Source of the DNA: a virus
Lineage: Duplodnaviria; Caudoviricetes
Strand: one strand, 5' to 3'
Virus record (IMG/VR): IMGVR_UViG_3300036987_000100
Span: 1-64,000 of that record
Length of the DNA: 64,000 bases
Part shown: one piece after another, positions 1,714 through 26,399 of the stretch
Layout: every line of letters starts with the position of its first letter
Position numbering within the stretch: the first letter of the stretch is position 1
Made by a program: the position numbers and the translations under genes
The notes under the pieces: model-generated
The model's database searches: none
What the model was told of the DNA's origin: nothing
Seen by the model: only the letters and a program-made list of their open reading frames with translations

Positions 1714-2222
1714 GCTACGACCGCAGCAAGAGCATCATAAGGGTGCTCTTGGCCGGACGCAGGCACCCCAGCAGCCGTTAGTAACTCGGCAGGTCGCGCA
1801 CCAAAGCGAAGCCTGAGGGCCTTTTGAACGTCGCTCTTTGAGGCGCCTGCGTTCTGGCAAACAGCGTGCTTAAGCTCCTTGGGGGAAGCCATCAGCATCG
1901 CCACACCTTCTGATTCGCAGTAATCCGCCACCACGCCCCAAGTCATCGCCACCTTGGCTGCGGCAGACGAACTACGAGGGAAGCTCATAGCCTCACAGCA
2001 AATAACACGAGGGCGTGGAAGCGCCCGCAAGGCTCTGGAAATCTCACGAGCCCTGCGATAGTTATCATTGGAAGCGAGCACATTCTGCTTCTTTGCGGAC
2101 TTCTCGGTAGTAACAAGGCCCATGTCTAGCAGAACCTCCTTGCCTGCGGCGCCGTCAAGCTCTACTAGAACCCAACCGAGATTTGCGAAGCCTGGATCGA
2201 TTCCAAGGACCAAAAGAGGCAT
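1671..2222 (-). CDS. ruvC: RuvC-like Holliday junction resolvase
   Basis: VLGIDPGFANLG, ICCEAMSF, SKSDV and EHPYDALAA motifs. Confidence 0.9.
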   Translation of the reverse strand: MPLLVLGIDPGFANLGWVLVELDGAAGKEVLLDMGLVTTEKSAKKQNVLASNDNYRRAREISRALRALPRPRVICCEAMSFPRSSSAAAKVAMTWGVVADYCESEGVAMLMASPKELKHAVCQNAGASKSDVQKALRLRFGARPAELLTAAGVPASGQEHPYDALAAVVACLNSETLTLLRSA

Positions 2223-2653
2223 CAGGCCCCCTCTAGCTGCCGGTCTTCGATATCAAACCTACGGTTTGTCAGCGCCAAGATACCTAGAATGAAGTCAGCA
2301 TCATCGTTGCTGGTCAACTCTCCCGCAGGGCCCAGAAGCATCTTGCGCTTGGTTTCCTGCGCCACGACTGCGATGAGGTACTCCTGAAGCTCCTTGGCGC
2401 GGTCCTTCCCCCACTTGCTCTCGTAGAGAAAGCACATAGAACAAATAGGCGCCTTCGTATCCGTGAGGCCGGGTCCCGCAGCGCGGGTTACTAGCTCCCA
2501 TTTAGACTGTCGCTTGTCGCACACAGCGCAAGCAAGATTCCAAGACTCCTTGTCAAGCATCGTAAACAACGTAGTGTCCAGCCGTAGTGGCTTGTTCATG
2601 TGGGCTCCGAGAAACATTGGGTAGCGACTGCGCAAGTCTTGGCTTTGGGGCAA
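2222..2653 (-). CDS. hypothetical protein with two CxxC motifs; likely start at 2599
   Basis: CAVC and CSMC; ATG at 2599 overlaps the upstream stop. Confidence 0.55.
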   Translation of the reverse strand: MPQSQDLRSRYPMFLGAHMNKPLRLDTTLFTMLDKESWNLACAVCDKRQSKWELVTRAAGPGLTDTKAPICSMCFLYESKWGKDRAKELQEYLIAVVAQETKRKMLLGPAGELTSNDDADFILGILALTNRRFDIEDRQLEGA

Positions 2654-3453
2654 TCAACAGCAGCACAAATTCTCTCTGGTAACACCTTTTCGCCCTTAGA
2701 CCTATAGGCTTCGATGCTAGACCACAGCCCATCAAGGCTCTCTAAAATCCCCTCTAGCACGTCATCATCCCGTTCAACGTGGTGCTCGATGAGACCGTTG
2801 ATGCCAAAAGTGCCCTTGTCCCAATATAGAATCTGAGCCCACTGAGTCCCCGTGAACCACATGTACATCTGGGCTTGGATGACATGATCCATCTTAGGAG
2901 TCTTCTTGACCTCCCAAGCGCCTCGCTCCGAAATACTCTTCGCCTCCAATATGCCAAACCCTGCGTACTCCGGTAGTTTTAAGAACCCATCAGGATGTCC
3001 GGTAAGTCGGTATTGGTCGCTACGGAGTGACACCTCCTCGTACAAAAACCCCGCACTCCCGCAAACACACGCCTTGGGCCGGGGAACAATCGTCTCCAGC
3101 AGAGACTTCCCCTCTCGGGGGCCTCCAGTGAGGAGCCCACAGGTCGTACAGCGCCACTGCCCGTACAGGGTGTCCCCCAAGGCAGGCAATACCGCGTTTT
3201 GAAGGTTGTTGTGAAGAGCGTTGCCCAGGCTAAACACGAGGCTCAAATCCACGGTTACATCCATGGTTCGAGAAACATCATGAATCACACAGAGCACCTC
3301 TTCACGAGGGCACATACTGGACAACGCAGAACACCGAAGGAAAGAACTCGCATCAAGAGGCGCTCGCACCTCCTCTGACTTGAAGTGCTCCTTAATCAGT
3401 CCCACTATAGGAGTAGACGTTTTCGCCGCCCGAATAGCCTTTGCGAAAGCCAT
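2596..3453 (-). CDS. Cas4/AddB-like PD-(D/E)XK exonuclease
   Basis: LTGHPDG...ILEAKS...HVIQAQMY; N-terminal CPRE plus C-terminal C-x4-C-x5-C (1+3 Cys Fe-S layout). Confidence 0.7.
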   Translation of the reverse strand: MAFAKAIRAAKTSTPIVGLIKEHFKSEEVRAPLDASSFLRCSALSSMCPREEVLCVIHDVSRTMDVTVDLSLVFSLGNALHNNLQNAVLPALGDTLYGQWRCTTCGLLTGGPREGKSLLETIVPRPKACVCGSAGFLYEEVSLRSDQYRLTGHPDGFLKLPEYAGFGILEAKSISERGAWEVKKTPKMDHVIQAQMYMWFTGTQWAQILYWDKGTFGINGLIEHHVERDDDVLEGILESLDGLWSSIEAYRSKGEKVLPERICAAVDCPKAKTCAVATQCFSEPT

Positions 3454-3731
3454 GTAAAGAACCCCTTGCGCGTCAGTCTTACGTCCGATTTTAGAAGCTT
3501 CAAGCTGAGTTGAAGCTTCTGTAAAATACCACGTGCTTCGTCCGGAGTAAGCTCATACCCGCAATCAGGGCAGTTCCACCAGTACTTTATTGGCTCCCAT
3601 GTCATTTTCTCAGAGCAAGCGACGCATTCAAAATCAGGCACGGAAAACGGATCCTCAAAAACAATACGAAGCTGCCCACCATGACGAAGCTGCAGGCGTC
3701 GCCGCACGCTGTCCATCTCAGATTGGCCCAT
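3405..3731 (-). CDS. zinc-ribbon protein with basic C-terminus
   Basis: CVAC...CPDCG. Confidence 0.6.
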   Translation of the reverse strand: MGQSEMDSVRRRLQLRHGGQLRIVFEDPFSVPDFECVACSEKMTWEPIKYWWNCPDCGYELTPDEARGILQKLQLSLKLLKSDVRLTRKGFFTWLSQRLFGRRKRLLL

Positions 3732-3741
3732 GGGATGCCCG

Positions 3742-3789
3742 ATGAATGAATGAATGAATGAATGAATGAATGAATGAATGAATGAATGA
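3742..3789. repeat. tetranucleotide simple sequence repeat (ATGA)12
   Basis: 48 bp of perfect repeat read directly, in an intergenic gap. Confidence 0.98.
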
Positions 3790-3824
3790 GTAGCAGCACT
3801 AATCCACTGCAGGACTCAGCAGCA

Positions 3825-4124
3825 TCACAAATAGGTTACAAAGTACAGCCTAGGATTGGCGCCAGTCCACTTCGCTAAGGCCGCTAGAGCGTCTCCGGTA
3901 GGAAGACAGCCCCTCGCGCAAGCCGCAACATCTTCCAACAAAGTGATGTACACCTGCATCAAGGTCTCGTTTTGCCGCGCTCGGGCCAAGGCCCGCTCCA
4001 TCTCTGAAAATTCATCGTCAGGACCACCCGGCGGGAGAACCACTTTGTACTGCAAGTTGGGCGATGCACGCCGAATTCGAGCTAAAACGCCAGTCAATAT
4101 CTCGATTTTAGTGTCGACGCTCAT
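3825..4124 (-). CDS. hypothetical protein, 99 aa
   Basis: Co-oriented; start overlaps the upstream stop at 4124. Confidence 0.6.
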   Translation of the reverse strand: MSVDTKIEILTGVLARIRRASPNLQYKVVLPPGGPDDEFSEMERALARARQNETLMQVYITLLEDVAACARGCLPTGDALAALAKWTGANPRLYFVTYL

Positions 4125-4633
4125 CAGGAATCCTCGACCTTCCGCATCAAGCGCTCGTAAACAGCAAGTGGCATGGCCACGTACTCCTTCTGAACGTGAC
4201 CCTGCTGGTCTTGGAAGGTAATGATAAGTCCAGGGTGCTTCATCTTTAGCCGGGCCCCCTGCTCCACCTTGTCAAGCCACTCCAGCTTTACGGAAAGAGA
4301 CTCGTTCCGCGTAAACTTGTGCTCGAAGTGGAAGTTCGGAGTAGCAAGATCTCCGTTGTCTGTACTCTCTACCTCTCGCATTCCAGTGCGAGATCGACCC
4401 CCCTTTAGGACCTTCCGATACGACTTTCGTACGAGAGGTCTATTACCGCTGCCAGGATACCGCTTACCGCCAAGACGCTCCGCTAGACGGTACTCATGCT
4501 TCTTGGCAATCTTGGCGTTCTCATGATTCGTCCCCTGAAGCCACTTCGGGGCAGGAGAGGGCTTCTCCGTGGCATCTAGAAGCCACTTCGGGGACGGCTT
4601 CCTTTCGGTCTCCTCTGGTTTCTTGCTGGCCAC
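4124..4633 (-). CDS. PD-(D/E)XK nuclease, Hjc-like resolvase candidate
   Basis: EYRLAERLGGKRYPGSG...GDL...FEHKFT pattern; directly downstream of recA. Confidence 0.6.
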   Translation of the reverse strand: MASKKPEETERKPSPKWLLDATEKPSPAPKWLQGTNHENAKIAKKHEYRLAERLGGKRYPGSGNRPLVRKSYRKVLKGGRSRTGMREVESTDNGDLATPNFHFEHKFTRNESLSVKLEWLDKVEQGARLKMKHPGLIITFQDQQGHVQKEYVAMPLAVYERLMRKVEDS

Positions 4634-4748
4634 AGATCCGACACTCCCATTTGAAAATCATTGGAAACGACAACAACGTGTCAGGATCCGGAGAGGCAAT
4701 CATATCCTCCCCGCATCCAAGACAGGGCTCTAATCCGCGAGGAGGCAC
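4521..4748 (-). CDS. possible overlapping small zinc-ribbon protein
   Basis: CLGCGEDM...LLSFP...WECRICG; GTG at 4748; overlaps both neighbours. Confidence 0.35.
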   Translation of the reverse strand: MPPRGLEPCLGCGEDMIASPDPDTLLSFPMIFKWECRICGQQETRGDRKEAVPEVASRCHGEALSCPEVASGDES

Positions 4749-7156
4749 TCCATTACTCTCTTCGAGAGCAAGCGCTTGAATCCTTGGTCCTTCACGAGCA
4801 GAGACTCGATTTCCCCCTTGGTTCCGAAGGGAACTCCGGCGCACAGCCACTTGCTACCTTCCTTTTTTAGGATCTCGTAACGTTCCGCTTGATCCATAAT
4901 AACAGACGCATCCAGCACGTCCCCCTTCTTATGGGTCTCCGTGTTTCCAAGAGCAACGCGGTAACCGCCCTCCATCATAGAGTGACCCTGCTTGTTTTTT
5001 TCACACTTGAAAGTGAAAAGAACGGAGAGCGGCTTTACGAGCATGAGATCGATATCGATTGCCTCCTTTTCTTCCTTTTCGCCCTTAACCTTCTCAATCT
5101 CGTACTTAGCCGTCTTAAACTTCACCTCAGTGGTGGCTGCAAACTGCGGAGCCATACCGCCAGGCTGAGTCTCGGGATTGCCGAACATCACACCGATCTT
5201 GAATCGAACTTGATTGGTGAAAAACACAGTGGGCTTGCGACCAGTCGTATTCCCCATGTGATTCAAGGCGGAAACGAACTTACGAATGCCTTTGCCGAGA
5301 ACACGGGATTGTGAACCCATCGTCTCTTTCGAGGCCGACTGTTCGATTTCTTTTTCGGGAGTCATGAACGCAAGAGAGTCCATGGCGAGGATGTCGATAT
5401 TTCCATCTCGGAGTAGCGCTTCAGCGATGTCGAGACTTTGCTCGGCGTACTCCGGTTCCGAAAGCAACAAAGAGTCGGTATTGATGCCTAGACCTCTCGC
5501 CCACTTCTGGTCCCAAGTGTTGTGAACTAGTATGTCGGACACCGTCCAAGAGTGCCCCAGAGGGATTCCGGCATCGTAGGTAGGTGCCTTCCCAGCAGGA
5601 GCAACAGCCTCCACGGTATCCCACCATACATCTGACTTGTTAAGGAACTGCTCTCGGTGCTTGATGTGACGTTTGTCCCGAGGGTTGTACGAGGGAAGAT
5701 AATTCTCTGAGGAGGGCTTGGATTTCAAGGAAGCACGAGAACACCATCTGGATAGCAACTTTCCCTTGTGCCCATACAAAGGAATTGCTGCTTGGAATTT
5801 CTTCAGGTTATCGACCCCGTAAATCCAGAGCACATGCCACGGCTGATGGAGTTCATCTCCGTCGTGCTGGGTATAAATGTGTCCCAAAATCCCAAGACGG
5901 CTCAGGAGCCACTTTACTTGAAGCATCAGACGTCTGGATGTGGAGGTAAAATGTAGCGCGGCGTTAGAAGAAGAGACACCGCCATCGGACATCCACAGGC
6001 CCTGGAGGGCAGCGGCAACCACGTCTTGTGTAGAATTCAGAATCTCTTGCGGTAGAAATTTGTGGTTGGCGGTAGACCCCAGTAGCCCAAGCGCGGCCAT
6101 GCGGCGACGAAGCTCGTTTTTGGACCCAGAGTTACTCACTAAGCGGCCGTGCCTATCGTCATACTTGGTCACTTTACAGCCCCAAGGACGCAGCAGTTCG
6201 GAAACCCTCTTCCAAATGTCGTCATCGGTGTTGGTCAACACCAGGCTGGAATTTGCATCAAAGCTCCCATCGCCGACCATCAACCCGACTAACTCTGCCA
6301 ACCCCACAGATACTCCGGTGTCCGAGCCTGCCATGGTCACCTTCCACGGCCTGGCAATCCTATCGCCCTTTTTTAGCTTACCGGCGTGCACCCATGAAGG
6401 TTTACCTTTACGCCAAGTTAAAATCGGGTGATCCGGAGTGCACTGCAGAGAAGTCGTGGAAGTAGACACCTTAACTGTCTCTTGGACACCAGAAGCTACG
6501 CGTACCACCGCCGGAGCGACAGCCAGTTTCCCCTCGTGCCACGAACAAACATGCCGAGCCTCCTTGGCAGTAATAAAGTCCTCTACGGTTCCAACAAACC
6601 CAGTTCGAGGGTCCATAATCTCTTGTGAGCCCGCGATGCAGCCTTCGTTATTGATGTAACCAACAACGACTTCGCGATATTTCCCACACGGACACGTAGG
6701 GCGCTTCAAAACCTCGCCCGTCGCGCCGTCAAAGAAAGTCACAAAGTTCCAGCAGTTCGCGCACATCTCTTGGGCGTTACCGATGGTCTTGAGAAGAGTA
6801 GATGTCTTTCCAGAAGACTTCGGACCCCAAACAGTATGAATGCCACCGACGCGCCAACCCCCGCCGAGAGCCCAATCCATTGAAAGAGAGCCTGAGGGGA
6901 TGAACTGGGAAACAGCAGAGTGGTGCTCGCTAGCTCGACGAATGATGCTGACGCCATGCTTCTTTGCAATAGCCTTCAGCGTGTCGGAAACCAAAACCTT
7001 GTCCAGGCGAGAGTGCTTAACAACCTTAACGGGAGCAACCTCGGAGGACTCCGAAGAGGATTCCTCTGACGCTCCGGAAGTTGCTGCTTCTGCGGCTTCA
7101 ATCGCATCGTCCTTCTTCTTGGCCATGTGATGCCTCTTAGAGAATGCTGGTGTCAC
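4730..7156 (-). CDS. recA: RecA-like recombinase with an intein (probable start MAKKKDD)
   Basis: SGSLSMDWALGGG, GPKSSGKTS (Walker A), MDSLA (Walker B), FTNQVRFKIGVMFGNPET. Confidence 0.92.
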   Translation of the reverse strand: MTPAFSKRHHMAKKKDDAIEAAEAATSGASEESSSESSEVAPVKVVKHSRLDKVLVSDTLKAIAKKHGVSIIRRASEHHSAVSQFIPSGSLSMDWALGGGWRVGGIHTVWGPKSSGKTSTLLKTIGNAQEMCANCWNFVTFFDGATGEVLKRPTCPCGKYREVVVGYINNEGCIAGSQEIMDPRTGFVGTVEDFITAKEARHVCSWHEGKLAVAPAVVRVASGVQETVKVSTSTTSLQCTPDHPILTWRKGKPSWVHAGKLKKGDRIARPWKVTMAGSDTGVSVGLAELVGLMVGDGSFDANSSLVLTNTDDDIWKRVSELLRPWGCKVTKYDDRHGRLVSNSGSKNELRRRMAALGLLGSTANHKFLPQEILNSTQDVVAAALQGLWMSDGGVSSSNAALHFTSTSRRLMLQVKWLLSRLGILGHIYTQHDGDELHQPWHVLWIYGVDNLKKFQAAIPLYGHKGKLLSRWCSRASLKSKPSSENYLPSYNPRDKRHIKHREQFLNKSDVWWDTVEAVAPAGKAPTYDAGIPLGHSWTVSDILVHNTWDQKWARGLGINTDSLLLSEPEYAEQSLDIAEALLRDGNIDILAMDSLAFMTPEKEIEQSASKETMGSQSRVLGKGIRKFVSALNHMGNTTGRKPTVFFTNQVRFKIGVMFGNPETQPGGMAPQFAATTEVKFKTAKYEIEKVKGEKEEKEAIDIDLMLVKPLSVLFTFKCEKNKQGHSMMEGGYRVALGNTETHKKGDVLDASVIMDQAERYEILKKEGSKWLCAGVPFGTKGEIESLLVKDQGFKRLLSKRVMECLLAD
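5519..6640 (-). mobile_element. intein in RecA, 374 aa, in-frame LAGLIDADG domain
   Basis: NNEG|CIAGSQ...CTPDHP...LMVGDG...LWMSDG...ILVHN|TWD. Confidence 0.95.
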
Positions 7157-8354: not shown

Positions 8355-10955
8355 TCAAGGCACCCAGCCTTGCTTCTTATAGAACTTGTCTCGGTACTCG
8401 CCGGATTTTTTGCATAGGTTGATGTGATCATCTCGAAAATCCACAACCACGGGGTCTTTTTTTCCTTCAAAAGGGCGCAGGATGCGTCCTGCAATCTGCT
8501 CAACATCACCCATCGGGCAAGTCAGAAACAGGGTATCCAATGGGGGGATGTCCAAGCCTTCCTGCACGAGCTGACTGGTCGCGAAAATCACCTGAGCCTT
8601 GGAAGCCACATCAAGAGCTTCTTGGGTCTGCCCTCCAATATAGAAGCCGACAGAGGGCTTGGCCCCCGCGTCACCCCATTGCTTGTAGAGCGCCGTTTCA
8701 AGGTCCTGTAGGTGTTGAAGGCGTTCCGAAACAACTAGACACTTCCGCCCAGCCCTTACCGCCAAAAGCACCTGCTCGGTGATGGCTCGATTACGCCCCG
8801 CGCTAACGCACATAAACCGAAGCAATAACCCCTTTTTGATGAGGCTGGAGTTGAAGTTCGGTGCATGCACAATCTTGAAGAGGTCTGGTGTAATCCAGAC
8901 CTTGCGCACCTTGGGCTTCATTCGCACTTCTGTTGAAGCAAAGATCACTTCACCTATATGGTGATGAAAAACCGCATCGGCTCCATCCTTCCTGCGCGGA
9001 GTGGCCGAAAGACCAAGCCACCATCGAGCAGGAAACAGCGGGGGCACCCGGGACCAGGTTGCGGAACCTATACGATGGCAATTGTGAACTAAAATGCCGT
9101 TGGCTACGAAGTTATGGTTACCGTCAACGTCAAGATCGAACACCGGCTCTTCCCCACGCGCAGGGTCGTCTACGATCGCCGTAACCTTCTGGAAACTTGT
9201 ACTCCATCCCGGGGGCGCAGAACTTTTGAAAGCGTTCGAGCCACTTAATGGCGCACCCGGTTCGAAGCCTGAGCGCGTAGTACCCCCTGTAGTTGTAGGG
9301 GCGGGGGCTGAAACCCATCGTCTTGAGTTGGGCAGCGATAAGCCCAACATCTTTTTTACAAAAACCTTCAGTGTGAAAAACAATCCCGCCACGATTGATG
9401 GAGCCATCATCCATGTACCACCAAGCCCACCCTTCCTCGGAAATGCGCCGCAGCCACTCAACGGTAACGCGCTTGGGAGTACCAACAAGGGCGAGAACCG
9501 ATTGAAGCCTTGGGTGGCACATGCTGCTACCACGGCAGGACCACTCCCCGTAGCCGCCATTGAGACAGCGTTTAGTTCGAACCCCGAGCCCGAGGAGCCG
9601 GTTAGATTTGTGGGTTGCCCATTTGTTTTGGTCCCAACCATGATTAAATACGACTCTTGGGTTGGCGGTAGGGTGCGGCTTTCCAATATAGGAGTCTCCA
9701 AGCAAGGTTCCGTAAAGAAGTCCAAGCACCTCTTCAGAAATGGAACCTCGTTGTTCGCCAACGCGATTGTGTCCTGGAAGATGTTTGGCCCATTTATGAA
9801 ATCGCAATCTTTTTCGATCAAAAGAAACGGGAAGCCGGACGTGCTCGCCGCAACCGCACTCGCATAACGGTGCTTGGGCTTCCAGCTCCAATCTTCGAGC
9901 AACTTTATCAACGCAGCTCTTGCCTTTACGGCTATGTCCAATAACGTATTTACGGCTCCGACCCCTAACGTCAAAGGCTGGAGTATCCTGTCCGCAGCCG
10001 CAGCCACAGGGGACAGCAAGCTGTCTCCAACCTTCAGGTTTCGGGCCTGTACCCAACCTGCTGTTGTCAAAAACAAGTGCTCCGGAGTGCAACGGACCGT
10101 TCGACTTTCGACCCGAATGGTCAGCGTTTTTCGGCTTTTCCTTGGTAGCCATCGTAGAACCTTTCGGTACTCCCATTTATGAGTCGACTCATTGAAGGTT
10201 AGCACGCGAATGGAGGGATAGCTACCTAGCTCGGAAATTGGAAGTAAGCCTCGGTCTGTGTGAATAACCGAATCGCCAGAAATGCACTCATCTGTCAGCA
10301 CTAGGCCGAAGTACTTATTGAAGTCCTCCCCGTAATCCTTCTCGCATAGGGAGTGCACCATCCCGAGGACGACGTGCTTTCCCTTGAAGTCGCAATCAGG
10401 CCCTTGAGCGATGCCTACTTGGGCATCAGGAAGGTATTGCCTAATGCGCTCCCGCCACTGGTCCATCAGGAACTCTTTGTGGACTACAACGAGTGTAGGA
10501 ACTTGAAGCTCGGCCATAAGGGCGCAAGAGAGTACCGTTTTCCCAAAACCCGGAACCGCACGGACAATCCCACCCAAACAGCCCGCGCGCAACATGGCAA
10601 CGATGTGTACGCGACCACGAGCCTGTTCTTCGCGTAGGGTACCCGCGAACTTCAAGTCCCCGGGCCACTCGGTCTTATCCCCCTCAATGGTTCGAAACTC
10701 CACTTCGTGCGCAGGCTTCCTGCGGCCGAGGAAGAACTGGCGAGGCATTCCGAAAGCCGCAGCGTTCTCAGTGAACAAGGAGATGGGACTGGGGGCCTCC
10801 CCAGGGTGATCCCCGACTTTGCGCGGAGTAATAGTGAGAGCACGGCGAAGGGCCTCTAGCTGCGCGGCTGATAAGTCCTTCTTGGAAGCCCAAGCCCAAC
10901 TGTCAATGATAACCTTCAAGACCGCCCCCCAGGCAGCACCGACACAGGTATGCAC
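8355..10955 (-). CDS. superfamily 2 (DExH) helicase with an intein
   Basis: LREEQ, GFGKT, DE|CH after splicing, GLSATPRRKDG, QEGLDIP, QIAGRILR. Confidence 0.92.
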   Translation of the reverse strand: MHTCVGAAWGAVLKVIIDSWAWASKKDLSAAQLEALRRALTITPRKVGDHPGEAPSPISLFTENAAAFGMPRQFFLGRRKPAHEVEFRTIEGDKTEWPGDLKFAGTLREEQARGRVHIVAMLRAGCLGGIVRAVPGFGKTVLSCALMAELQVPTLVVVHKEFLMDQWRERIRQYLPDAQVGIAQGPDCDFKGKHVVLGMVHSLCEKDYGEDFNKYFGLVLTDECISGDSVIHTDRGLLPISELGSYPSIRVLTFNESTHKWEYRKVLRWLPRKSRKTLTIRVESRTVRCTPEHLFLTTAGWVQARNLKVGDSLLSPVAAAADRILQPLTLGVGAVNTLLDIAVKARAALIKLLEDWSWKPKHRYASAVAASTSGFPFLLIEKDCDFINGPNIFQDTIALANNEVPFLKRCLDFFTEPCLETPILESRTLPPTQESYLIMVGTKTNGQPTNLTGSSGSGFELNAVSMAATGSGPAVVAACATQGFNRFSPLLVLPSALPLSGCGAFPRKGGLGGTWMMAPSIVAGLFFTLKVFVKKMLGLSLPNSRRWVSAPAPTTTGGTTRSGFEPGAPLSGSNAFKSSAPPGWSTSFQKVTAIVDDPARGEEPVFDLDVDGNHNFVANGILVHNCHRIGSATWSRVPPLFPARWWLGLSATPRRKDGADAVFHHHIGEVIFASTEVRMKPKVRKVWITPDLFKIVHAPNFNSSLIKKGLLLRFMCVSAGRNRAITEQVLLAVRAGRKCLVVSERLQHLQDLETALYKQWGDAGAKPSVGFYIGGQTQEALDVASKAQVIFATSQLVQEGLDIPPLDTLFLTCPMGDVEQIAGRILRPFEGKKDPVVVDFRDDHINLCKKSGEYRDKFYKKQGWVP
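9081..10286 (-). mobile_element. intein in helicase motif II, 402 aa; its endonuclease is in a different frame
   Basis: TDE|CISGDS...CTPEHLF...VFDLDVDGNHNFVANGILVHN|CHR. Confidence 0.95.
9130..10176 (-). CDS. LAGLIDADG homing endonuclease overprinted in the -1 frame inside the intein
   Basis: CGCGCG and CECGCG repeats, LYGTLLGDSYI, WWYMDDGSI, PGMEYKF; 10955-10176=779, not divisible by 3. Confidence 0.85.
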   Translation of the reverse strand: MGVPKGSTMATKEKPKNADHSGRKSNGPLHSGALVFDNSRLGTGPKPEGWRQLAVPCGCGCGQDTPAFDVRGRSRKYVIGHSRKGKSCVDKVARRLELEAQAPLCECGCGEHVRLPVSFDRKRLRFHKWAKHLPGHNRVGEQRGSISEEVLGLLYGTLLGDSYIGKPHPTANPRVVFNHGWDQNKWATHKSNRLLGLGVRTKRCLNGGYGEWSCRGSSMCHPRLQSVLALVGTPKRVTVEWLRRISEEGWAWWYMDDGSINRGGIVFHTEGFCKKDVGLIAAQLKTMGFSPRPYNYRGYYALRLRTGCAIKWLERFQKFCAPGMEYKFPEGYGDRRRPCAWGRAGVRS

Positions 10956-15037: not shown

Positions 15038-15825
15038 ACCTCCGAAGCGACCACATGGTCGCTTGTTGGTTGAAAAGTTTTCAGGGCCAGGCTCTCGTAG
15101 CGACTGCCGCGCGAACCGCCCAGCCACACGCTGCTAGGGAGAATGGAGGTCTCCAACAAAAAGGCTTTCTGGATTTTTGACGCAGCATTCAAAACAACCA
15201 AGAAATGATACTTGGCTTTTCGATTGGTGGTATCGAAATGACAGCGGCCCCGATAGGGTCGAGAAGTCTTCACCTCTACCGGAGCCCCATCCAGCAGAAA
15301 GTCGTGCTCTGCGTACCAGTGCGTAGCCGAAATAGATACCGCAGTAGGGAATAAGCTCCCAAAGTAAGAAAGACCTATCTTGGCTAAGCGTACTCTCGGA
15401 TCGCTTTCGTTTCCAGAGGTGAGCTGTTCTCTGCGAGATAAGCTGATATGGCTGCTTGCGGGAAGCGCCTCTAGATTAAGTATGTGGTTATCGAGCTTGT
15501 CGCCGTTCTTGTGGTGTATGTGCCAACCATCAGGAGTAGACCCATGAGTAGTCTCCCACACCACAATAGGTTCAAAGACGTAGCCATGCCTATCGGCTCT
15601 CCTGTGTCTTGGGGCATAAATTCGTCTGTAGCCTCCGGCGATACTCGACTTGCCTTCCAGTCTTCTTCCGGCCGGACGTCGCGCAACTCCCTCCGCCTTT
15701 AGTAGATTGCTTATAGTAACAGGGGCACACGCATATAGAGCGCCCAATGACGCAGTTGTTTCCCCCGAGACATACGCATAGACAACGCGTGCTCTGTCCT
15801 CGGGAGTAACGAATAATTTTTTCAT
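15034..15825 (-). CDS. HNH endonuclease with N-terminal HTH and C-terminal PD-(D/E)XK-like domain
   Basis: IHHKNGDKLDNHILNL; DFLLDGAPVEVKTS. Confidence 0.8.
   Translation of the reverse strand: MKKLFVTPEDRARVVYAYVSGETTASLGALYACAPVTISNLLKAEGVARRPAGRRLEGKSSIAGGYRRIYAPRHRRADRHGYVFEPIVVWETTHGSTPDGWHIHHKNGDKLDNHILNLEALPASSHISLSRREQLTSGNESDPRVRLAKIGLSYFGSLFPTAVSISATHWYAEHDFLLDGAPVEVKTSRPYRGRCHFDTTNRKAKYHFLVVLNAASKIQKAFLLETSILPSSVWLGGSRGSRYESLALKTFQPTSDHVVASEV
15047..15062. repeat. 16-bp palindrome copy 3 (GCGACCACATGGTCGC)
   Basis: Read directly; just 5' of the GGAGG of the 15037 gene. Confidence 0.95.
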
Positions 15826-18464
15826 CAGAACGGAACGCTCCCCGGGTCACCCGAGCCACCACCAATATCAATCGGCTCAATTACATCCCCGCTGCCCTGC
15901 GCCAAAACCTCACTGAAGTTGCTCGATTCGAAATCCCAATTAAGTTCGAAGTCCCGGCCGTCACCATCTCGAACCTTGAGTTGCTTCACCTGCATTCGCT
16001 TCTCTTTCTTATTGTCGTCGGTCTGTACTAGACCAAAAATCAGGGTCGAGTGCCAGACCGCCGCATCCGTCAAAGCGATGCTTTCGGCAGTAGCAGTGGC
16101 AGCCTGGTTTTTCTTCACTTCACGATTGAACTGAGAAGTCACCACAATAGGCAACTTCTTGGACATCGTTAGTCTCTTCACTTCACTGAAGGCGTTTGCG
16201 GCCTGCTCGATGCGGTCCTTGCCTGGTACCTTGATGAGGTAGATACCGTCAATAATCACCATTTCAGGCTGCGCCTCGTCTATAGCCGCAGCAAGCGTTT
16301 CAACCCGAAAATCAAAATTACCACCAACAACCGTCAGACCCTTCTCATTCAAAACATTCTTGGTAGCCTTCTCCAGCCGCTCTCTCTCAAAAACGGTAAG
16401 CTGACCAGAGCGCACTCGACCAAACGGAAGCTTTTCTTTGAGCGCAAAGAATCGCAGCGCAATTCTCATTTTGCTCATTTCCGTCGTTACGTAGAGCACC
16501 TTGTGCTTCCGAAACACCTCTGTGAGAGGTCCGTAGTTGCCTTGGTCATCGCGGACCTTGGTCCACAGTTTATAGCCAGTCGAGGCGTGCTCCGCGAGCA
16601 TCAGGCTGGCAAAGGTATTGTGAACGATAATGTCGTTGGCGACAAAACAACTGGTAGGCTCGACGGTCAAGTCGTAGATTTTCTGTTGGCCAACGTCCTC
16701 GATGCTCTCAATAACGTCCCAAAAAATATCAGAGGACCAAAGCCACCTGTACTCCGACTCGATTCCAAATACCTCGCAAAAAGCCTTAAAGGGACGAAGC
16801 CAGAGAGAGCCGTTGGCTCCAAACATATCTCGGACACCGAAATAGGAATTCTGCCCAGCCTTGTGCGCCGGATCTCTCCCTAAGAGCTTAGCCACTCGCA
16901 CAAGTGAACCATCGCCAGTCCAGCGCCCAGAGCGCGCCTTCGCAAGTGCTGCTATCTTTGCCTCGAATTCCCTCGACACGCGCGGGTACCCAACGTTGGT
17001 ATTACGCTTCTTTTTAAGAAGAGCAGTAACTCTTTGCGCCTTCTCGCCCCACAAGTGTACTTCGCGTGCGAAATTCTCCAAGGAAGAGGAGTACACTCTT
17101 AAGCGCCACGCATCGAACTTCTTGCCGTCACAGGTCGCCTGTTTGTATCCAACGCTGCTCTGAATACCTAGGCGGAGCAAAAGACTTTGTAGCTGGCGCA
17201 CCATCTTTTCGGAAGCCAGGGTTACACCGGGGCCGGTACTGTCGACGTAACCATCGCACATCCAAAAGGTCGAAATGAACTCAGATAGAGACTTCGTGGG
17301 TAGACGGTAAACAACAGCAGGAATGGTCTTGTGTTTAGCTAAGATGCCATCCATCCCATATTGCCGCAGTAACGCTTTAACTGGTCGGCCTAACCCCTCA
17401 TCCCAAGCGAAAGCATAGTCATAGTTTGCACGGTGGCGCACTTCGACCCCAAAAGCACGAGCCGCCTCATGGGCACGCTCTAGAATCTCAGGATCCGCAG
17501 TACTAAATCCGACAGTGCGACTCGTATAAGAGCCCTCGGCGAGCAACAATGCCAACAAGAATACGGTCTCAGAAGGTAAATCCTCTGGATGTTCAGGAGC
17601 GGGCATTCTGGCTGGAAGTGCAACAGTCATCCCAACCTTAAACTGTTCCGCAGGTTTCCAACCCTCTGCCGTCAAAAGAGGGTGCTCCGGAGTAACCGTT
17701 ACAGAACGTCCTGACGCGTAAGTGAATTTTAGACAACGCTTGTGTCCTGTATCCACCTTGGCAGTAATCGGCGTGGAGTGAATCCCCTTCTCCGGACTCC
17801 AAGTGGTGACCAGCTTGAGAGAGGGGGTCGATACCACTTCTTCAATAGTGTGCTCTTCACCTGTCTCTGGATCGACAATGCGCGTGGAGGCACAAACACA
17901 CTTCCCAATTCCGCTTCGGGCCACAAAGAGAATTAGCTCCTCTTTATTGAATCCAAGCGTGGTGTCATTCATGGTCGCCCACGGCGTCATGATTCCACGC
18001 TCACCCGCCTCCATTCGCAGGTAGTAGTCCCAAACATTGGGACCCTCATCAAACATCGAGGTCACTCTGGAGTCAGCGGCCCCAACCTGAAGACGCTGGA
18101 TGCGATAAACGGCCTGCTGTAACTCTTCAAACGACTCTATGTTTTGCTGGCTCTTAAGAAGATCCAGCGCAGTGTCAACGGAGCGCTTTACCTCGTTGCC
18201 AATAGCATTCTTGAGGATTTCATCTGCCCAAAATCCAGCAGTACAGCCATCCATCGCGGGAGGGAGCGGGATACCGAGCTTAGCCTCAATTACCCCAACA
18301 TCAGGTAGGGCTCCGTACTGCGAATAATGAATCGCGATGTACTCAAGGGCGGGCGCAGCTACCCCCTGGAGAATCTCCGGAGGAATCGCCCGAGAGAGGA
18401 ACTCCCGGTAGGCGGGTTTGCCCCCGTCCAATATGGCTCGAACCAGCGACTGCGTGAAATCCAC
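15825..18464 (-). CDS. dnaB: DnaB-like replicative helicase with an intein
   Basis: ARSGIGK|T after splicing, VTTEMS, IIDGIYL, VTSQFNR. Confidence 0.92.
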   Translation of the reverse strand: MDFTQSLVRAILDGGKPAYREFLSRAIPPEILQGVAAPALEYIAIHYSQYGALPDVGVIEAKLGIPLPPAMDGCTAGFWADEILKNAIGNEVKRSVDTALDLLKSQQNIESFEELQQAVYRIQRLQVGAADSRVTSMFDEGPNVWDYYLRMEAGERGIMTPWATMNDTTLGFNKEELILFVARSGIGKCVCASTRIVDPETGEEHTIEEVVSTPSLKLVTTWSPEKGIHSTPITAKVDTGHKRCLKFTYASGRSVTVTPEHPLLTAEGWKPAEQFKVGMTVALPARMPAPEHPEDLPSETVFLLALLLAEGSYTSRTVGFSTADPEILERAHEAARAFGVEVRHRANYDYAFAWDEGLGRPVKALLRQYGMDGILAKHKTIPAVVYRLPTKSLSEFISTFWMCDGYVDSTGPGVTLASEKMVRQLQSLLLRLGIQSSVGYKQATCDGKKFDAWRLRVYSSSLENFAREVHLWGEKAQRVTALLKKKRNTNVGYPRVSREFEAKIAALAKARSGRWTGDGSLVRVAKLLGRDPAHKAGQNSYFGVRDMFGANGSLWLRPFKAFCEVFGIESEYRWLWSSDIFWDVIESIEDVGQQKIYDLTVEPTSCFVANDIIVHNTFASLMLAEHASTGYKLWTKVRDDQGNYGPLTEVFRKHKVLYVTTEMSKMRIALRFFALKEKLPFGRVRSGQLTVFERERLEKATKNVLNEKGLTVVGGNFDFRVETLAAAIDEAQPEMVIIDGIYLIKVPGKDRIEQAANAFSEVKRLTMSKKLPIVVTSQFNREVKKNQAATATAESIALTDAAVWHSTLIFGLVQTDDNKKEKRMQVKQLKVRDGDGRDFELNWDFESSNFSEVLAQGSGDVIEPIDIGGGSGDPGSVPF
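16617..17900 (-). mobile_element. intein in the DnaB P-loop, 428 aa, in-frame LAGLIDADG domain
   Basis: GIGK|CVCAST...VTPEHP...LLLAEG...FWMCDG...IIVHN|TFA. Confidence 0.95.
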
Positions 18465-24974: not shown

Positions 24975-25006
24975 CTCTTGACAAGAGAAGTGCAATGTAG
25001 TACAAG
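24975..25006 (+). promoter_or_regulatory. sigma70-like promoter with a palindrome over the -35 box
   Basis: TTGACA(24978)-N17-TACAAG; CTCTTG-A-CAAGAG at 24975-24987. Confidence 0.6.
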
Positions 25007-25031
25007 CACACTTACAAAGGGGCAACACACC

Positions 25032-26399
25032 ATGGACTTCATTCGGGTTGCAATTCTGACTTGTGTACTGATGCTGCTGGGTTGCGGGGCTGCCCCGGCA
25101 GAGACGTGCACCCCGGGGCTGTCTGTCGCCTGCATCGGACCTGCTGGCTGCTCAGGGGGGCAGGTCTGCGACAAGGACGGCACCGGCTACCTCGCCTGCC
25201 AGTGCGCCCCCGCCGACAGCGGCGCTGGTGGCGGCACTGCTGCCGGTGGCGGGACTGGCGGCGGCAGCGGAGGGGGCTCAACCAACCCGTGCGAGGGCAT
25301 CACGTGCCCCACGCCTCCGGCTCCTATTTGTCTGACAGCGACGTCCGCGCGGACCTGGTCTCCTTCCGGCACCTGCTCCGGCGGGACGTGCAGTTACGTC
25401 TTCACGGACTCTGCCTGCCCCACTGGTTGCTCCGGAGGTGTCTGCAACCCCAACCCGTGCGGGGGCATCACCTGCAGCACTCCGCCCGCCCCCACCTGCG
25501 CGAGTGCCTCAACCCGGCGCGCCTACTCCTCGACTGGCACTTGCTCCAATGGCACCTGCAGCTACACCTTCACGGACTCCACGTGCCCCTACGGTTGCGC
25601 CGGAGGTACCTGCAACGCCAACCCCTGCACGACTACTACCTGTAACAGTCCTCCCGGTGCTTCGTGCACCACGCCCTCAACTCGGCGCGTCTATTCCTCG
25701 CCGGGGACTTGCACCGGAGGCGCATGCAGCTACTCCTTCACGGAGACGACGTGCCCCTATGGCTGCGCCGGAGGCGTGTGCAAGCCGGACCCCTGCGCCA
25801 GCATCACCTGCACCGCCCTCAGCCAGTGCCACCTGGTGGGGACGTGTAACTCCGCCACGGGCACCTGCTCCAACCCCCTCAAGGCCGCAGGCTCCAGTTG
25901 TGACGATGGAAACCTCTGCACCCTCAGCGACACCTGCAACTCCAGCGGCGTCTGCGTGGGCGGCACGACGAAGACGTGCCCTGCGGTGGATGCCGGGGTC
26001 GGCTTTTGTCAGGTGGGCGCCTGCGTCCCCTCCACCGGCCTCTGCGGCTCGATGCCGGGGCCCGACAACACCGTGTGCGTCGCAGACTTGCAAAACCGTC
26101 TGGGCATGTGCCGCAGCGGCATCTGCCGTCTCGGCGTCCTCGGGGCAATGTGCGGCACTACTTCGGTTCCCTGCTCGGAAGGGACTTGTGACGATGGCCG
26201 CGTTGGCAACCCCGACGGCACCAACGGCTACTGCGTCCCCTGCGGCGCTGCCGGGCAACTGTGCTGCCGGTACAGGGTCTACAGCGGCTACAACGTAGCT
26301 GCCAGCAACTGCTGGGAGGCCCAGAAGGACTATTGCTGCAACGTTGGCGCCACCTGCACCGGCCCCGGGGGGAACAACCCCATCGGCATGTGCCAATAA
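25032..26399 (+). CDS. Cys-rich repeat lipoprotein of myxobacterial style
   Basis: AAAGGGG upstream of ATG 25032; lipobox LLG-C; three 56-aa repeats with 8 Cys each; CDDGNLCT..DTC repeat; visibly GC-rich codons. Confidence 0.85.
   Translation: MDFIRVAILTCVLMLLGCGAAPAETCTPGLSVACIGPAGCSGGQVCDKDGTGYLACQCAPADSGAGGGTAAGGGTGGGSGGGSTNPCEGITCPTPPAPICLTATSARTWSPSGTCSGGTCSYVFTDSACPTGCSGGVCNPNPCGGITCSTPPAPTCASASTRRAYSSTGTCSNGTCSYTFTDSTCPYGCAGGTCNANPCTTTTCNSPPGASCTTPSTRRVYSSPGTCTGGACSYSFTETTCPYGCAGGVCKPDPCASITCTALSQCHLVGTCNSATGTCSNPLKAAGSSCDDGNLCTLSDTCNSSGVCVGGTTKTCPAVDAGVGFCQVGACVPSTGLCGSMPGPDNTVCVADLQNRLGMCRSGICRLGVLGAMCGTTSVPCSEGTCDDGRVGNPDGTNGYCVPCGAAGQLCCRYRVYSGYNVAASNCWEAQKDYCCNVGATCTGPGGNNPIGMCQ

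Follow-up and report, generated by a model that had tools for sequence, protein, structure and literature searches.

We analyzed a window of 64,000 nucleotides (positions 1 to 64,000 of the uncultivated virus record IMGVR_UViG_3300036987_000100, which spans 75.7 kb and is an estimated 59% complete) and found on its minus strand a helicase gene with an intein that appears to encode two proteins in overlapping frames. With a probability of about 0.8, we propose that the element is a functional, non-canonical intein belonging to the cyanobacterial DnaX-intein family, inserted in motif II (DE↓CH, with the arrow marking the insertion point) of a phage superfamily 2 (SF2) helicase, in which the host frame would be read through and the intein spliced out in cis, and a separately initiated homing endonuclease would be made from the overlapping −1 frame. 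What we observed directly are the open reading frames (ORFs) and domains, the predicted folds, an architecture that is conserved among homologs, the signatures in codon positions and codon usage, and the intein-free alleles.

The helicase ORF is continuous through the whole intein for 866 codons (866 amino acids, aa) plus a stop; coordinates of all features are given in Table 1. Pfam places ResIII at residues 107–224 and Intein_splicing (PF14890; 56.9 bits against a cut-off of 35.8) at residues 239–625. The GTG at 10955 is merely the first possible start, and the alignment with an intein-free homolog, P0026, begins at residue 13. The insertion point lies in motif II (Walker B): Cys1 is the TGC at 10286-10284 (...TDE↓CISGDS) and Asn402 is the AAT at 9083-9081, followed by Cys+1 (...ILVHN↓CHRIG, with VHN↓C at 9086-9078). 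The features of a class 1 intein are present, namely the Cys1 nucleophile after the N-extein, a block B TxxH (here TPEH), and His-Asn followed by Cys+1, and residues T67, H70, H401, and N402 are invariant in our intein alignment (A2). A first-pass annotation, made from the letters of the window alone, had described this continuous frame with intact splicing blocks (Cys1, TPEH, VHN↓C), and the ORF, the Pfam matches, and our own reading of the DNA confirmed it. Since the host frame contains no stop, the intein is contiguous and should cis-splice; since it splits motif II, helicase function needs splicing. An AlphaFold2 model of the host-frame intein has a pLDDT (predicted local distance difference test) score of ~90 for the beta-rich residues 1–96 and 358–402, versus ~29 for residues 97–357. 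The host-frame intein is predicted from this model to consist of HINT splicing parts around a 261-residue disordered linker, which bears out the long disordered loop that had been suggested at first reading.

The −1 frame of the same DNA carries a 348-codon ORF, counted from its first ATG, that begins 779 nt into the helicase ORF, such that the host frame is the endonuclease frame +1; the third sense frame across the intein region is full of stops. Its product matches Pfam LAGLIDADG_2 (PF03161) at 51.9 bits against a cut-off of 25 and contains every motif that the first-pass annotation had listed for an endonuclease at 9130-10176 (CGCGCG, CECGCG, LYGTLLGDS, WWYMDDGS, and PGMEYKF). Two LAGLIDADG motifs with their acidic residues lie in a single chain, as in I-SceI-like monomeric enzymes. 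An AlphaFold2 model built from a 15-sequence alignment has pLDDT values above 90 at residues ~150–330, 55–84 in the CxCGCG region, and below 50 at residues 1–48 and 339–348. The best PDB matches of this model in Foldseek were I-WcaI (6x1j, E = 5.7e-12, TMt 0.68) and I-SceI (1r7m, 7.5e-11), both of which ranked above the intein-type PI-PfuI. I-WcaI and I-SceI are monomeric enzymes of the intron or free-standing type. The −1-frame product is predicted, from its sequence and modeled fold, to be an I-SceI/I-WcaI-like LAGLIDADG_2 homing endonuclease, and its two N-terminal CxCGCG...GH modules presumably bind zinc and DNA. An exact-sequence look-up of the endonuclease across public assemblies returned no record. 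An opposite-strand ORF of 257 codons (window 9094-9867, plus strand) also spans the dual-coding region and is probably a shadow of the two sense frames.

Conservation changes frame at the borders of these domains. Against six homologs with the helicase insertion site, host-frame amino acid identity is 0.3–0.6 until ~10010, falls to 0.06–0.37, and returns to 0.57–0.66 after ~9190, while identity in the endonuclease frame shows the opposite profile (0.13–0.62 across the overlap). The conserved frame changes to that of the endonuclease at the first CxCGCG motif (9991..10008), and the first 48–55 and last ~20 residues of the endonuclease ORF, which overlap the splicing blocks, are not conserved as endonuclease. 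As the closest homolog is only 52% identical in protein and synonymous sites are saturated, we used identity by codon position. In the core, nucleotide identity tracks the endonuclease frame (0.63/0.71/0.38 at the three positions versus the phage-like contig L001), with the third endonuclease-frame position lowest in 8/8 comparisons; in the N- and C-terminal intein parts (IntN and IntC) and in the exteins, it tracks the host frame. These patterns indicate that the endonuclease frame is under amino-acid-level selection in the core and that the host-frame linker is selected only against stops and not for its amino acid sequence.

The absence of stops from the linker is hard to attribute to chance. 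Over the 275 host-frame codons that overlap the endonuclease, 0 stops were observed against a mean of 7.1 expected. With the endonuclease protein held fixed and synonymous codons drawn from the usage of the window genes, the host frame was stop-free in 17/100,000 trials (P = 1.7e-4). A naive estimate from the stop density in the +1 frames of the other window genes (0.0387 per codon) gives ~2e-5 for 275 codons. The effect on which the first-pass annotation had relied is thus real, though its figure of 1e-5 to 1e-6 was somewhat optimistic. Permuting the region's own codons gives only P = 0.057 because they are already depleted of NTA and NTG, from which alone +1-frame stops can arise: GTT accounts for 13/18 Val codons, and CTT or CTC for 18/24 Leu codons. 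This avoidance would follow from keeping the host frame free of stops. Among the window genes, and leaving the intein aside, the longest +1-frame open run is a 320-codon stop-free stretch (overlapping ORF 25438..26298) in the sole long plus-strand ORF of the window (24978-26399, 473 codons).

The first-pass annotation had suggested looking for homologous inteins and for conservation in both frames. A search with the endonuclease as query recovered stand-alone gene calls of ~330–350 aa at 31–53% identity. The three contigs that we fetched all have the window's arrangement, with a host ORF running through the intein and the endonuclease in another frame. One is a phage-like contig with the window's helicase site, represented by independent ENA and JGI assemblies (L001/L002) and also present in Logan; another is a further phage-like contig (L004) with an intein and an out-of-frame endonuclease; and the third (L003) is the complete chromosome of Leptolyngbya sp. 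NIES-3755, in which the intein lies in dnaX and the endonuclease (P0008) matches that of the window with E = 1.4e-47 and 39% identity. A wider scan covered 29 viral and 80 bacterial loci, the latter being the best 80 of 133 tblastn hits. All of these best 80 are cyanobacterial-type dnaX, including two metagenome-assembled genomes labeled non-cyanobacterial, and in all 80 the host frame is open and equals the endonuclease frame +1. The viral and metagenomic helicase loci L001/L002, L004–L006, L008–L011, and L017 share this offset and open frame.

The loci that passed our parsing filters as embedded number 90, comprising the 80 cyanobacterial dnaX loci and phage-like helicases for the rest; they are phylogenetically related and not independent trials, with divergence down to 30–50% protein identity. 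The host frame is stop-free in 90/90 of them (0 stops versus ~11 expected per locus), an outcome reached in only 42/27,000 resamplings. Of the Leu/Val/Ile codons, NTA and NTG account for 26.5% in the endonuclease core versus 52% in the exteins belonging to the same genes, and the depletion has the same direction in 90/90 loci (Wilcoxon 1.7e-16). The earlier claim that both frames are under selection therefore holds in the codon-position pattern and in the stop-free frames of the 90 loci; it needs the qualification that the host frame appears to be selected against stops and not for amino acids. Relatives with an in-frame endonuclease were absent from the homologs found. Two metagenome proteins were considered as in-frame endonuclease fusions and rejected, since both are frame-hybrid products. 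In P0024, the endonuclease reads on into IntC and a clamp-loader C-extein; in P0025, a dnaX N-extein, IntN, and linker are followed, from the first LAGLIDADG motif on, by sequence in the endonuclease frame. The two represent either genuine frameshift variation or errors in assembly.

The endonuclease frame has its own start signals, as the first-pass annotation had pointed out: ATGs at 10176 and 10152, the latter preceded by GAAAGG. This GAAAGG lies at 10165-10160, with a 7-nt spacer. A TAA directly before ATG 10176 means that ribosomes cannot enter the endonuclease frame from further upstream. ATG 10152 lines up with the Met starts of the homologous gene calls P0002, P0003, P0005, and P0006. 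A Shine–Dalgarno (SD) sequence and start codon lie 47–49 codons before the first CxCGCG motif in five helicase lineages, namely the window, L001 (with a GTG start), L004, L005, and L006; in the last four, the SD-like sequence is GAAGG, AGGAGG, GGAGG, or AGGAG. In each case it is formed by the Arg/Lys codons of the E-Y-R-(K/R) segment of IntN. Slippery heptamers of the form X_XXY_YYZ were absent from the host frame near the window junction, and none was conserved among ten loci. Given the conserved SD and start and the lack of a slippery site, internal initiation at ATG 10152 is the most likely route of expression, and frameshifting is unsupported. Of the two ways in which nuclease expression was originally suggested to be uncoupled from the host protein, internal initiation is thus supported, and a frameshift near CTG TCC CCT is not.

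The element is not present in every close relative. We found 62 intein-free helicase homologs of ~445–475 aa (among P0026–P0090); the closest, P0026 (452 aa), is 83% identical over the N-extein and 89% over the C-extein and has the site ...TDEVHRIG.... The intein is sporadically distributed. Because close relatives lack it, it is not fixed, and homing would still be useful. Directly after the Walker B DE, 28 of the 62 intein-free alleles have V, 16 have C, 9 have T, and 9 have A. Occupied sites all share the Walker B sequence (V/I/T/A)-D-E↓C-(H/N/Q), in at least three helicase lineages and in dnaX. A blastn search of the gene against cultured phages gave no match; a protein search of cultured phages gave matches in T1/Rtp-like coliphages and Pectobacterium phages.

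Based on these observations, we propose the following mechanism. Translation of the helicase mRNA would proceed across all 402 intein codons; the first 96 and the last 45 of the encoded intein residues would form the HINT splicing domain, with the 261 residues between them acting as a sequence-unconstrained disordered tether. Cis-splicing would then yield a 464-residue DECH helicase. The endonuclease, read one base earlier, would be translated separately from a ribosome-binding site inside IntN (GAAAGG-N7-ATG 10152). It would presumably cut intein-free helicase alleles of co-infecting phages, and the whole element would be copied in by homing. In this scheme, we infer that the intein splices, that the internal start is used, that the nuclease is active, and what it would cleave.

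Three sets of observations weigh against this proposal. The nearest intein-free alleles carry DEVH instead of DECH and so lack the Cys required for splicing; an empty site identical to the spliced junction was therefore not seen among them, and homing would require either that the +1 codon be co-converted or that the targets be found in the 16/62 DECH alleles. The start of the endonuclease may differ from ATG 10152, as there are alternative in-frame starts at ATG 10176, which has no SD, and at a TTG 16 codons before the CxCGCG motif; the latter corresponds to a second recurring start 14–16 codons before the motif that is an ATG in the three cyanobacterial loci examined. Finally, the endonuclease frame was flagged as interrupted, with the host frame open, in 24/90 loci, some of these flags arising solely from a tblastn match that overran a stop codon. 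Loci with interrupted endonuclease frames and an open dnaX frame include L053, L072, L076, L080, L088, L090, L093, L095, and L107, among others. With about a quarter of loci affected, activity of any single copy is not guaranteed. These loci are consistent with decay of the endonuclease under continued selection for a readable host frame.

The same broken frames lend some weight to the alternative that the endonuclease ORF is a non-functional relic within what is in effect a fixed mini-intein with a long neutral loop, in which only the host frame is still under selection; the homing-cycle model does predict decay after fixation. We consider this unlikely for the window, where the 348-codon ORF is intact with all invariant residues of the family, including both LAGLIDADG acidic residues, where the model reaches pLDDT above 90 and an internal SD and ATG are present, and where close relatives without the intein show that it is not fixed.

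Programmed −1 frameshifting at the junction of IntN and the endonuclease, which would produce a fusion of N-extein, IntN, and endonuclease with or without a shift back, would suit the −1 position of the endonuclease relative to the host and the way in which the frames exchange roles no more than a few codons from the SP(V/A) / PC(x)C junction, which is conserved. We give it very little credence, since the slippery heptamer is missing at the window junction and is not conserved among the 10 loci, and the conserved upstream SD and start codon offer a simpler route. Moreover, in the split relatives L007, L012, L016, L019, and L023, the host frame stops ahead of the endonuclease gene or soon after its start, yet the endonuclease ORF remains intact, so the endonuclease can be a stand-alone gene. 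Since the contig is a metagenome assembly of an uncultivated virus, it could also be asked whether two compensating indels near 10010 and 9190 have displaced the in-frame endonuclease of a canonical intein, an outcome that the first-pass annotation had named as one that could refute its reading. This is extremely improbable: the same offset and junctions recur in 90 loci, among them complete cyanobacterial genomes and the independently assembled L001/L002, which excludes two compensating sequencing errors without recourse to reads. An artifact would also make the open host frame a 2e-4 coincidence, would leave the NTA/NTG depletion and the conserved internal SD and start unexplained, and finds no in-frame-endonuclease relative to derive from, P0024 and P0025 being frame hybrids.

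Our preferred reading, a contiguous intein with a separately initiated endonuclease, does not describe a new architecture: this rare layout has already been described for the cyanobacterial dnaX intein. The first-pass annotation had implied novelty; however, according to Phillips, DeSimone, and Gogarten 2026 (bioRxiv 10.64898/2026.09.14.751524), an out-of-frame architecture was first proposed by Gorbalenya 1998 (NAR 26:1741), and it appears in that preprint and in a 2025 one (10.1101/2025.01.02.630785). Phillips et al. reported an identical layout in the cyanobacterial dnaX intein: the in-frame linker is disordered, the LAGLIDADG protein of a “+2 ORF” is modeled with confidence and matches I-WcaI, SD motifs are present, and omega is low in the frame of the endonuclease (10.64898/2026.09.14.751524). 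They could not find the source of the endonuclease, and their text mentions helicases 0 times. The two preprints differ in the strand that they give for the Ssp DnaX endonuclease (antisense or same-strand); it is same-strand in the dnaX loci that we examined. A 150-aa version of the Ssp DnaX intein, engineered to lack its central region, is competent to splice, and its split halves trans-splice (PMC3443213).

The window's intein resembles the cyanobacterial DnaX intein closely. Their splicing blocks are homologous, with 27–30% identity over the whole intein (A2), as are the endonucleases (33–39% identity, E down to 1e-58, two CxCGCG motifs), and they share strand, +1 offset, junction positions, disordered host-frame linker, purifying selection in the endonuclease frame, and insertion between the Walker B Asp-Glu and Cys-His. 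They differ in host, which is a clamp-loader subunit there and a phage SF2/ResIII helicase here, with only the DE↓CH motif in common; in length (430 aa versus 402 aa here); in the start of the endonuclease, 16 codons before the zinc motif there versus ~48 here (likely start); and in that the window comes from an uncultivated phage also bearing two canonical inteins. What is new here is a dnaX-intein family member that is contiguous and resides in a phage helicase, together with intein-free relatives of 83–89% identity and split relatives of the same endonuclease family.

Other described systems share parts of this arrangement. In the fractured genes of Dassa et al. 2009 (PMC2677866), split inteins found mainly in phages have a free-standing endonuclease gene between the IntN and IntC coding regions, and the window's endonuclease family occurs in this setting in the truly split L007 (clamp loader) and L012 (helicase) and in L016/L019/L023. 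The window differs in that its host frame is a single 866-codon ORF without a stop and the endonuclease overlaps the halves instead of separating them; moreover, the Dassa endonucleases belong to a different, VSR-like family, not LAGLIDADG. Actinobacteriophage inteins with endonucleases in other frames or strands (10.1101/2025.01.02.630785) and the out-of-frame HNH insertion of ShiLan (PMC11855218) likewise have an open host ORF within which an endonuclease is encoded in another frame or on another strand, but these are antisense LAGLIDADG, antisense VSR-like, frame-3 EndoVII-like, or HNH without a splicing domain, and none is a same-strand LAGLIDADG_2 in a helicase. The 2025 preprint proposed that free-standing endonucleases invade mini-inteins and that inteins jump between genes via shared nucleotide-binding motifs (10.1101/2025.01.02.630785). 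Among cultured phages, Xanthomonas phage FoX3 gp40 (MT161383 / NC_055837; L115:1716-4250) has a helicase ORF contiguous through an intein at DE↓C...HN↓CH and a 252-aa LAGLIDADG ORF (2315..3073) in another frame. Its endonuclease is shorter than that of the window, lacks the CxCGCG modules, and is only 33% identical over the core.

Our own set of relatives includes several further layouts. In L007 (IMGVR_UViG_3300037264_000327, 1795-4772), the gene for a phage DnaX-like clamp loader is genuinely split at DE↓C...HN↓CH. Its N-half with IntN runs to a stop, the 409-aa endonuclease that comes next has four CxCGCG motifs, and IntC and the C-extein then occupy an ORF of their own; it is a LAGLIDADG version of a fractured gene. 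L012 (1507-4195) is a split helicase with three non-overlapping ORFs and the same endonuclease family. L016, L019, L022, and L023 are partly overlapping splits in which IntN overlaps the first ~180 nt of the endonuclease gene and the start of the IntC ORF overlaps its last ~90 nt. More distant endonucleases lie inside open ORFs of the terminase large subunit (GpA_ATPase; L013:1588-4866, L014, L015:1546-5202, and L024:1681-5424) and of radical-SAM proteins (L025:2146-4458 and L031:1876-4323). There, the host frame is the endonuclease frame +2, which looks like a second dual-coding configuration.

A tree was built by a quick method with support from the Shimodaira–Hasegawa-like approximate likelihood ratio test (SH-aLRT). 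The window's endonuclease pairs with that of L001 inside a four-member helicase clade (support 96) and also falls together with the dnaX clade and further helicase copies (SH-aLRT 81). The dnaX endonucleases form one clade (SH-aLRT 99) within an unresolved group that also holds three helicase lineages and L007. Neither the branching order of helicase and dnaX lineages nor the direction of transfer was resolved by this tree. As a tentative idea, to which we assign somewhat less than even odds, contiguous dual-coded helicase inteins may be part of one phage-borne family that moves among unrelated P-loop NTPase genes (SF2 helicases and phage and cyanobacterial clamp loaders), with the Walker B DE↓CH codons that these genes share as the route. 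The cyanobacterial dnaX intein would then have come from a phage reservoir, for which the window's element is a candidate source, and the contiguous form would be an intermediate that breaks into split, fractured helicase inteins once the host frame gains a stop.

With this copy, the overlapping-gene intein layout known from cyanobacterial dnaX is also represented in a phage replication helicase and is tied to an endonuclease family that also occurs in split, fractured inteins. The linker may serve as a natural example of a frame held open only for translation through it. Gene callers mis-annotate such loci: NIES-3755 was called as a hypothetical protein plus a truncated DnaX, and FoX3 gp40 as a plain helicase (“putative DNA helicase,” with no intein annotation). 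The contiguous and split relatives are also a possible source of new cis- and trans-splicing inteins.

Table 1. Positions in the window of the helicase gene, its intein, and the overlapping endonuclease.
Feature	Position	Strand	Description
Helicase precursor ORF	8355..10955	-	SF2/ResIII helicase with intein inside; Pfam ResIII and Intein_splicing
N-extein	10287..10955	-	Last residues ...LTDE (Walker B / motif II)
Intein	9081..10286	-	402 codons, in helicase frame, Cys1...His-Asn402; alignment A2
N-terminal splicing subdomain	9999..10286	-	Intein residues 1-96, blocks A and B, TPEH; pLDDT ~90; host frame better conserved
Host-frame linker	9216..9998	-	Intein residues 97-357; open, not conserved, predicted disordered; -1 frame is endonuclease core
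C-terminal splicing subdomain	9081..9215	-	Intein residues 358-402, ...NHNFVANGILVHN; pLDDT ~90; host-frame conservation
C-extein	8355..9080	-	Begins with Cys+1 (CHRIGS...), includes stop codon
Endonuclease ORF	9130..10176	-	-1 frame, 348 codons from first ATG, TAA directly upstream; LAGLIDADG_2
Most likely translated endonuclease	9130..10152	-	340 codons from ATG 10152
Shine–Dalgarno-like GAAAGG	10160..10165	-	7 nt upstream of ATG 10152, within IntN codons for E-Y-R-K
First CxCGCG motif (CGCGCG)	9991..10008	-	Endonuclease residues 57-62; C57, C59, G60, C61 invariant in endonuclease alignment A1
Second CxCGCG motif (CECGCG)	9847..9864	-	Residues 105-110; C105, C107, G108, C109 invariant in A1
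First LAGLIDADG motif (LLYGTLLGDS)	9691..9720	-	Residues 153-162; D161 invariant in A1
Second LAGLIDADG motif (WWYMDDGS)	9400..9423	-	Residues 252-259; D256 and D257 invariant in A1

Elsewhere in the window, RecA (4730..7156, minus strand) and a DnaB-like helicase (15825..18464, minus strand) contain canonical inteins. The first-pass annotation had described both as carrying their endonuclease in frame, which we found to be correct, the domain being LAGLIDADG_3 in each. This phage thus has three inteins within 14 kb, in replication and recombination genes.

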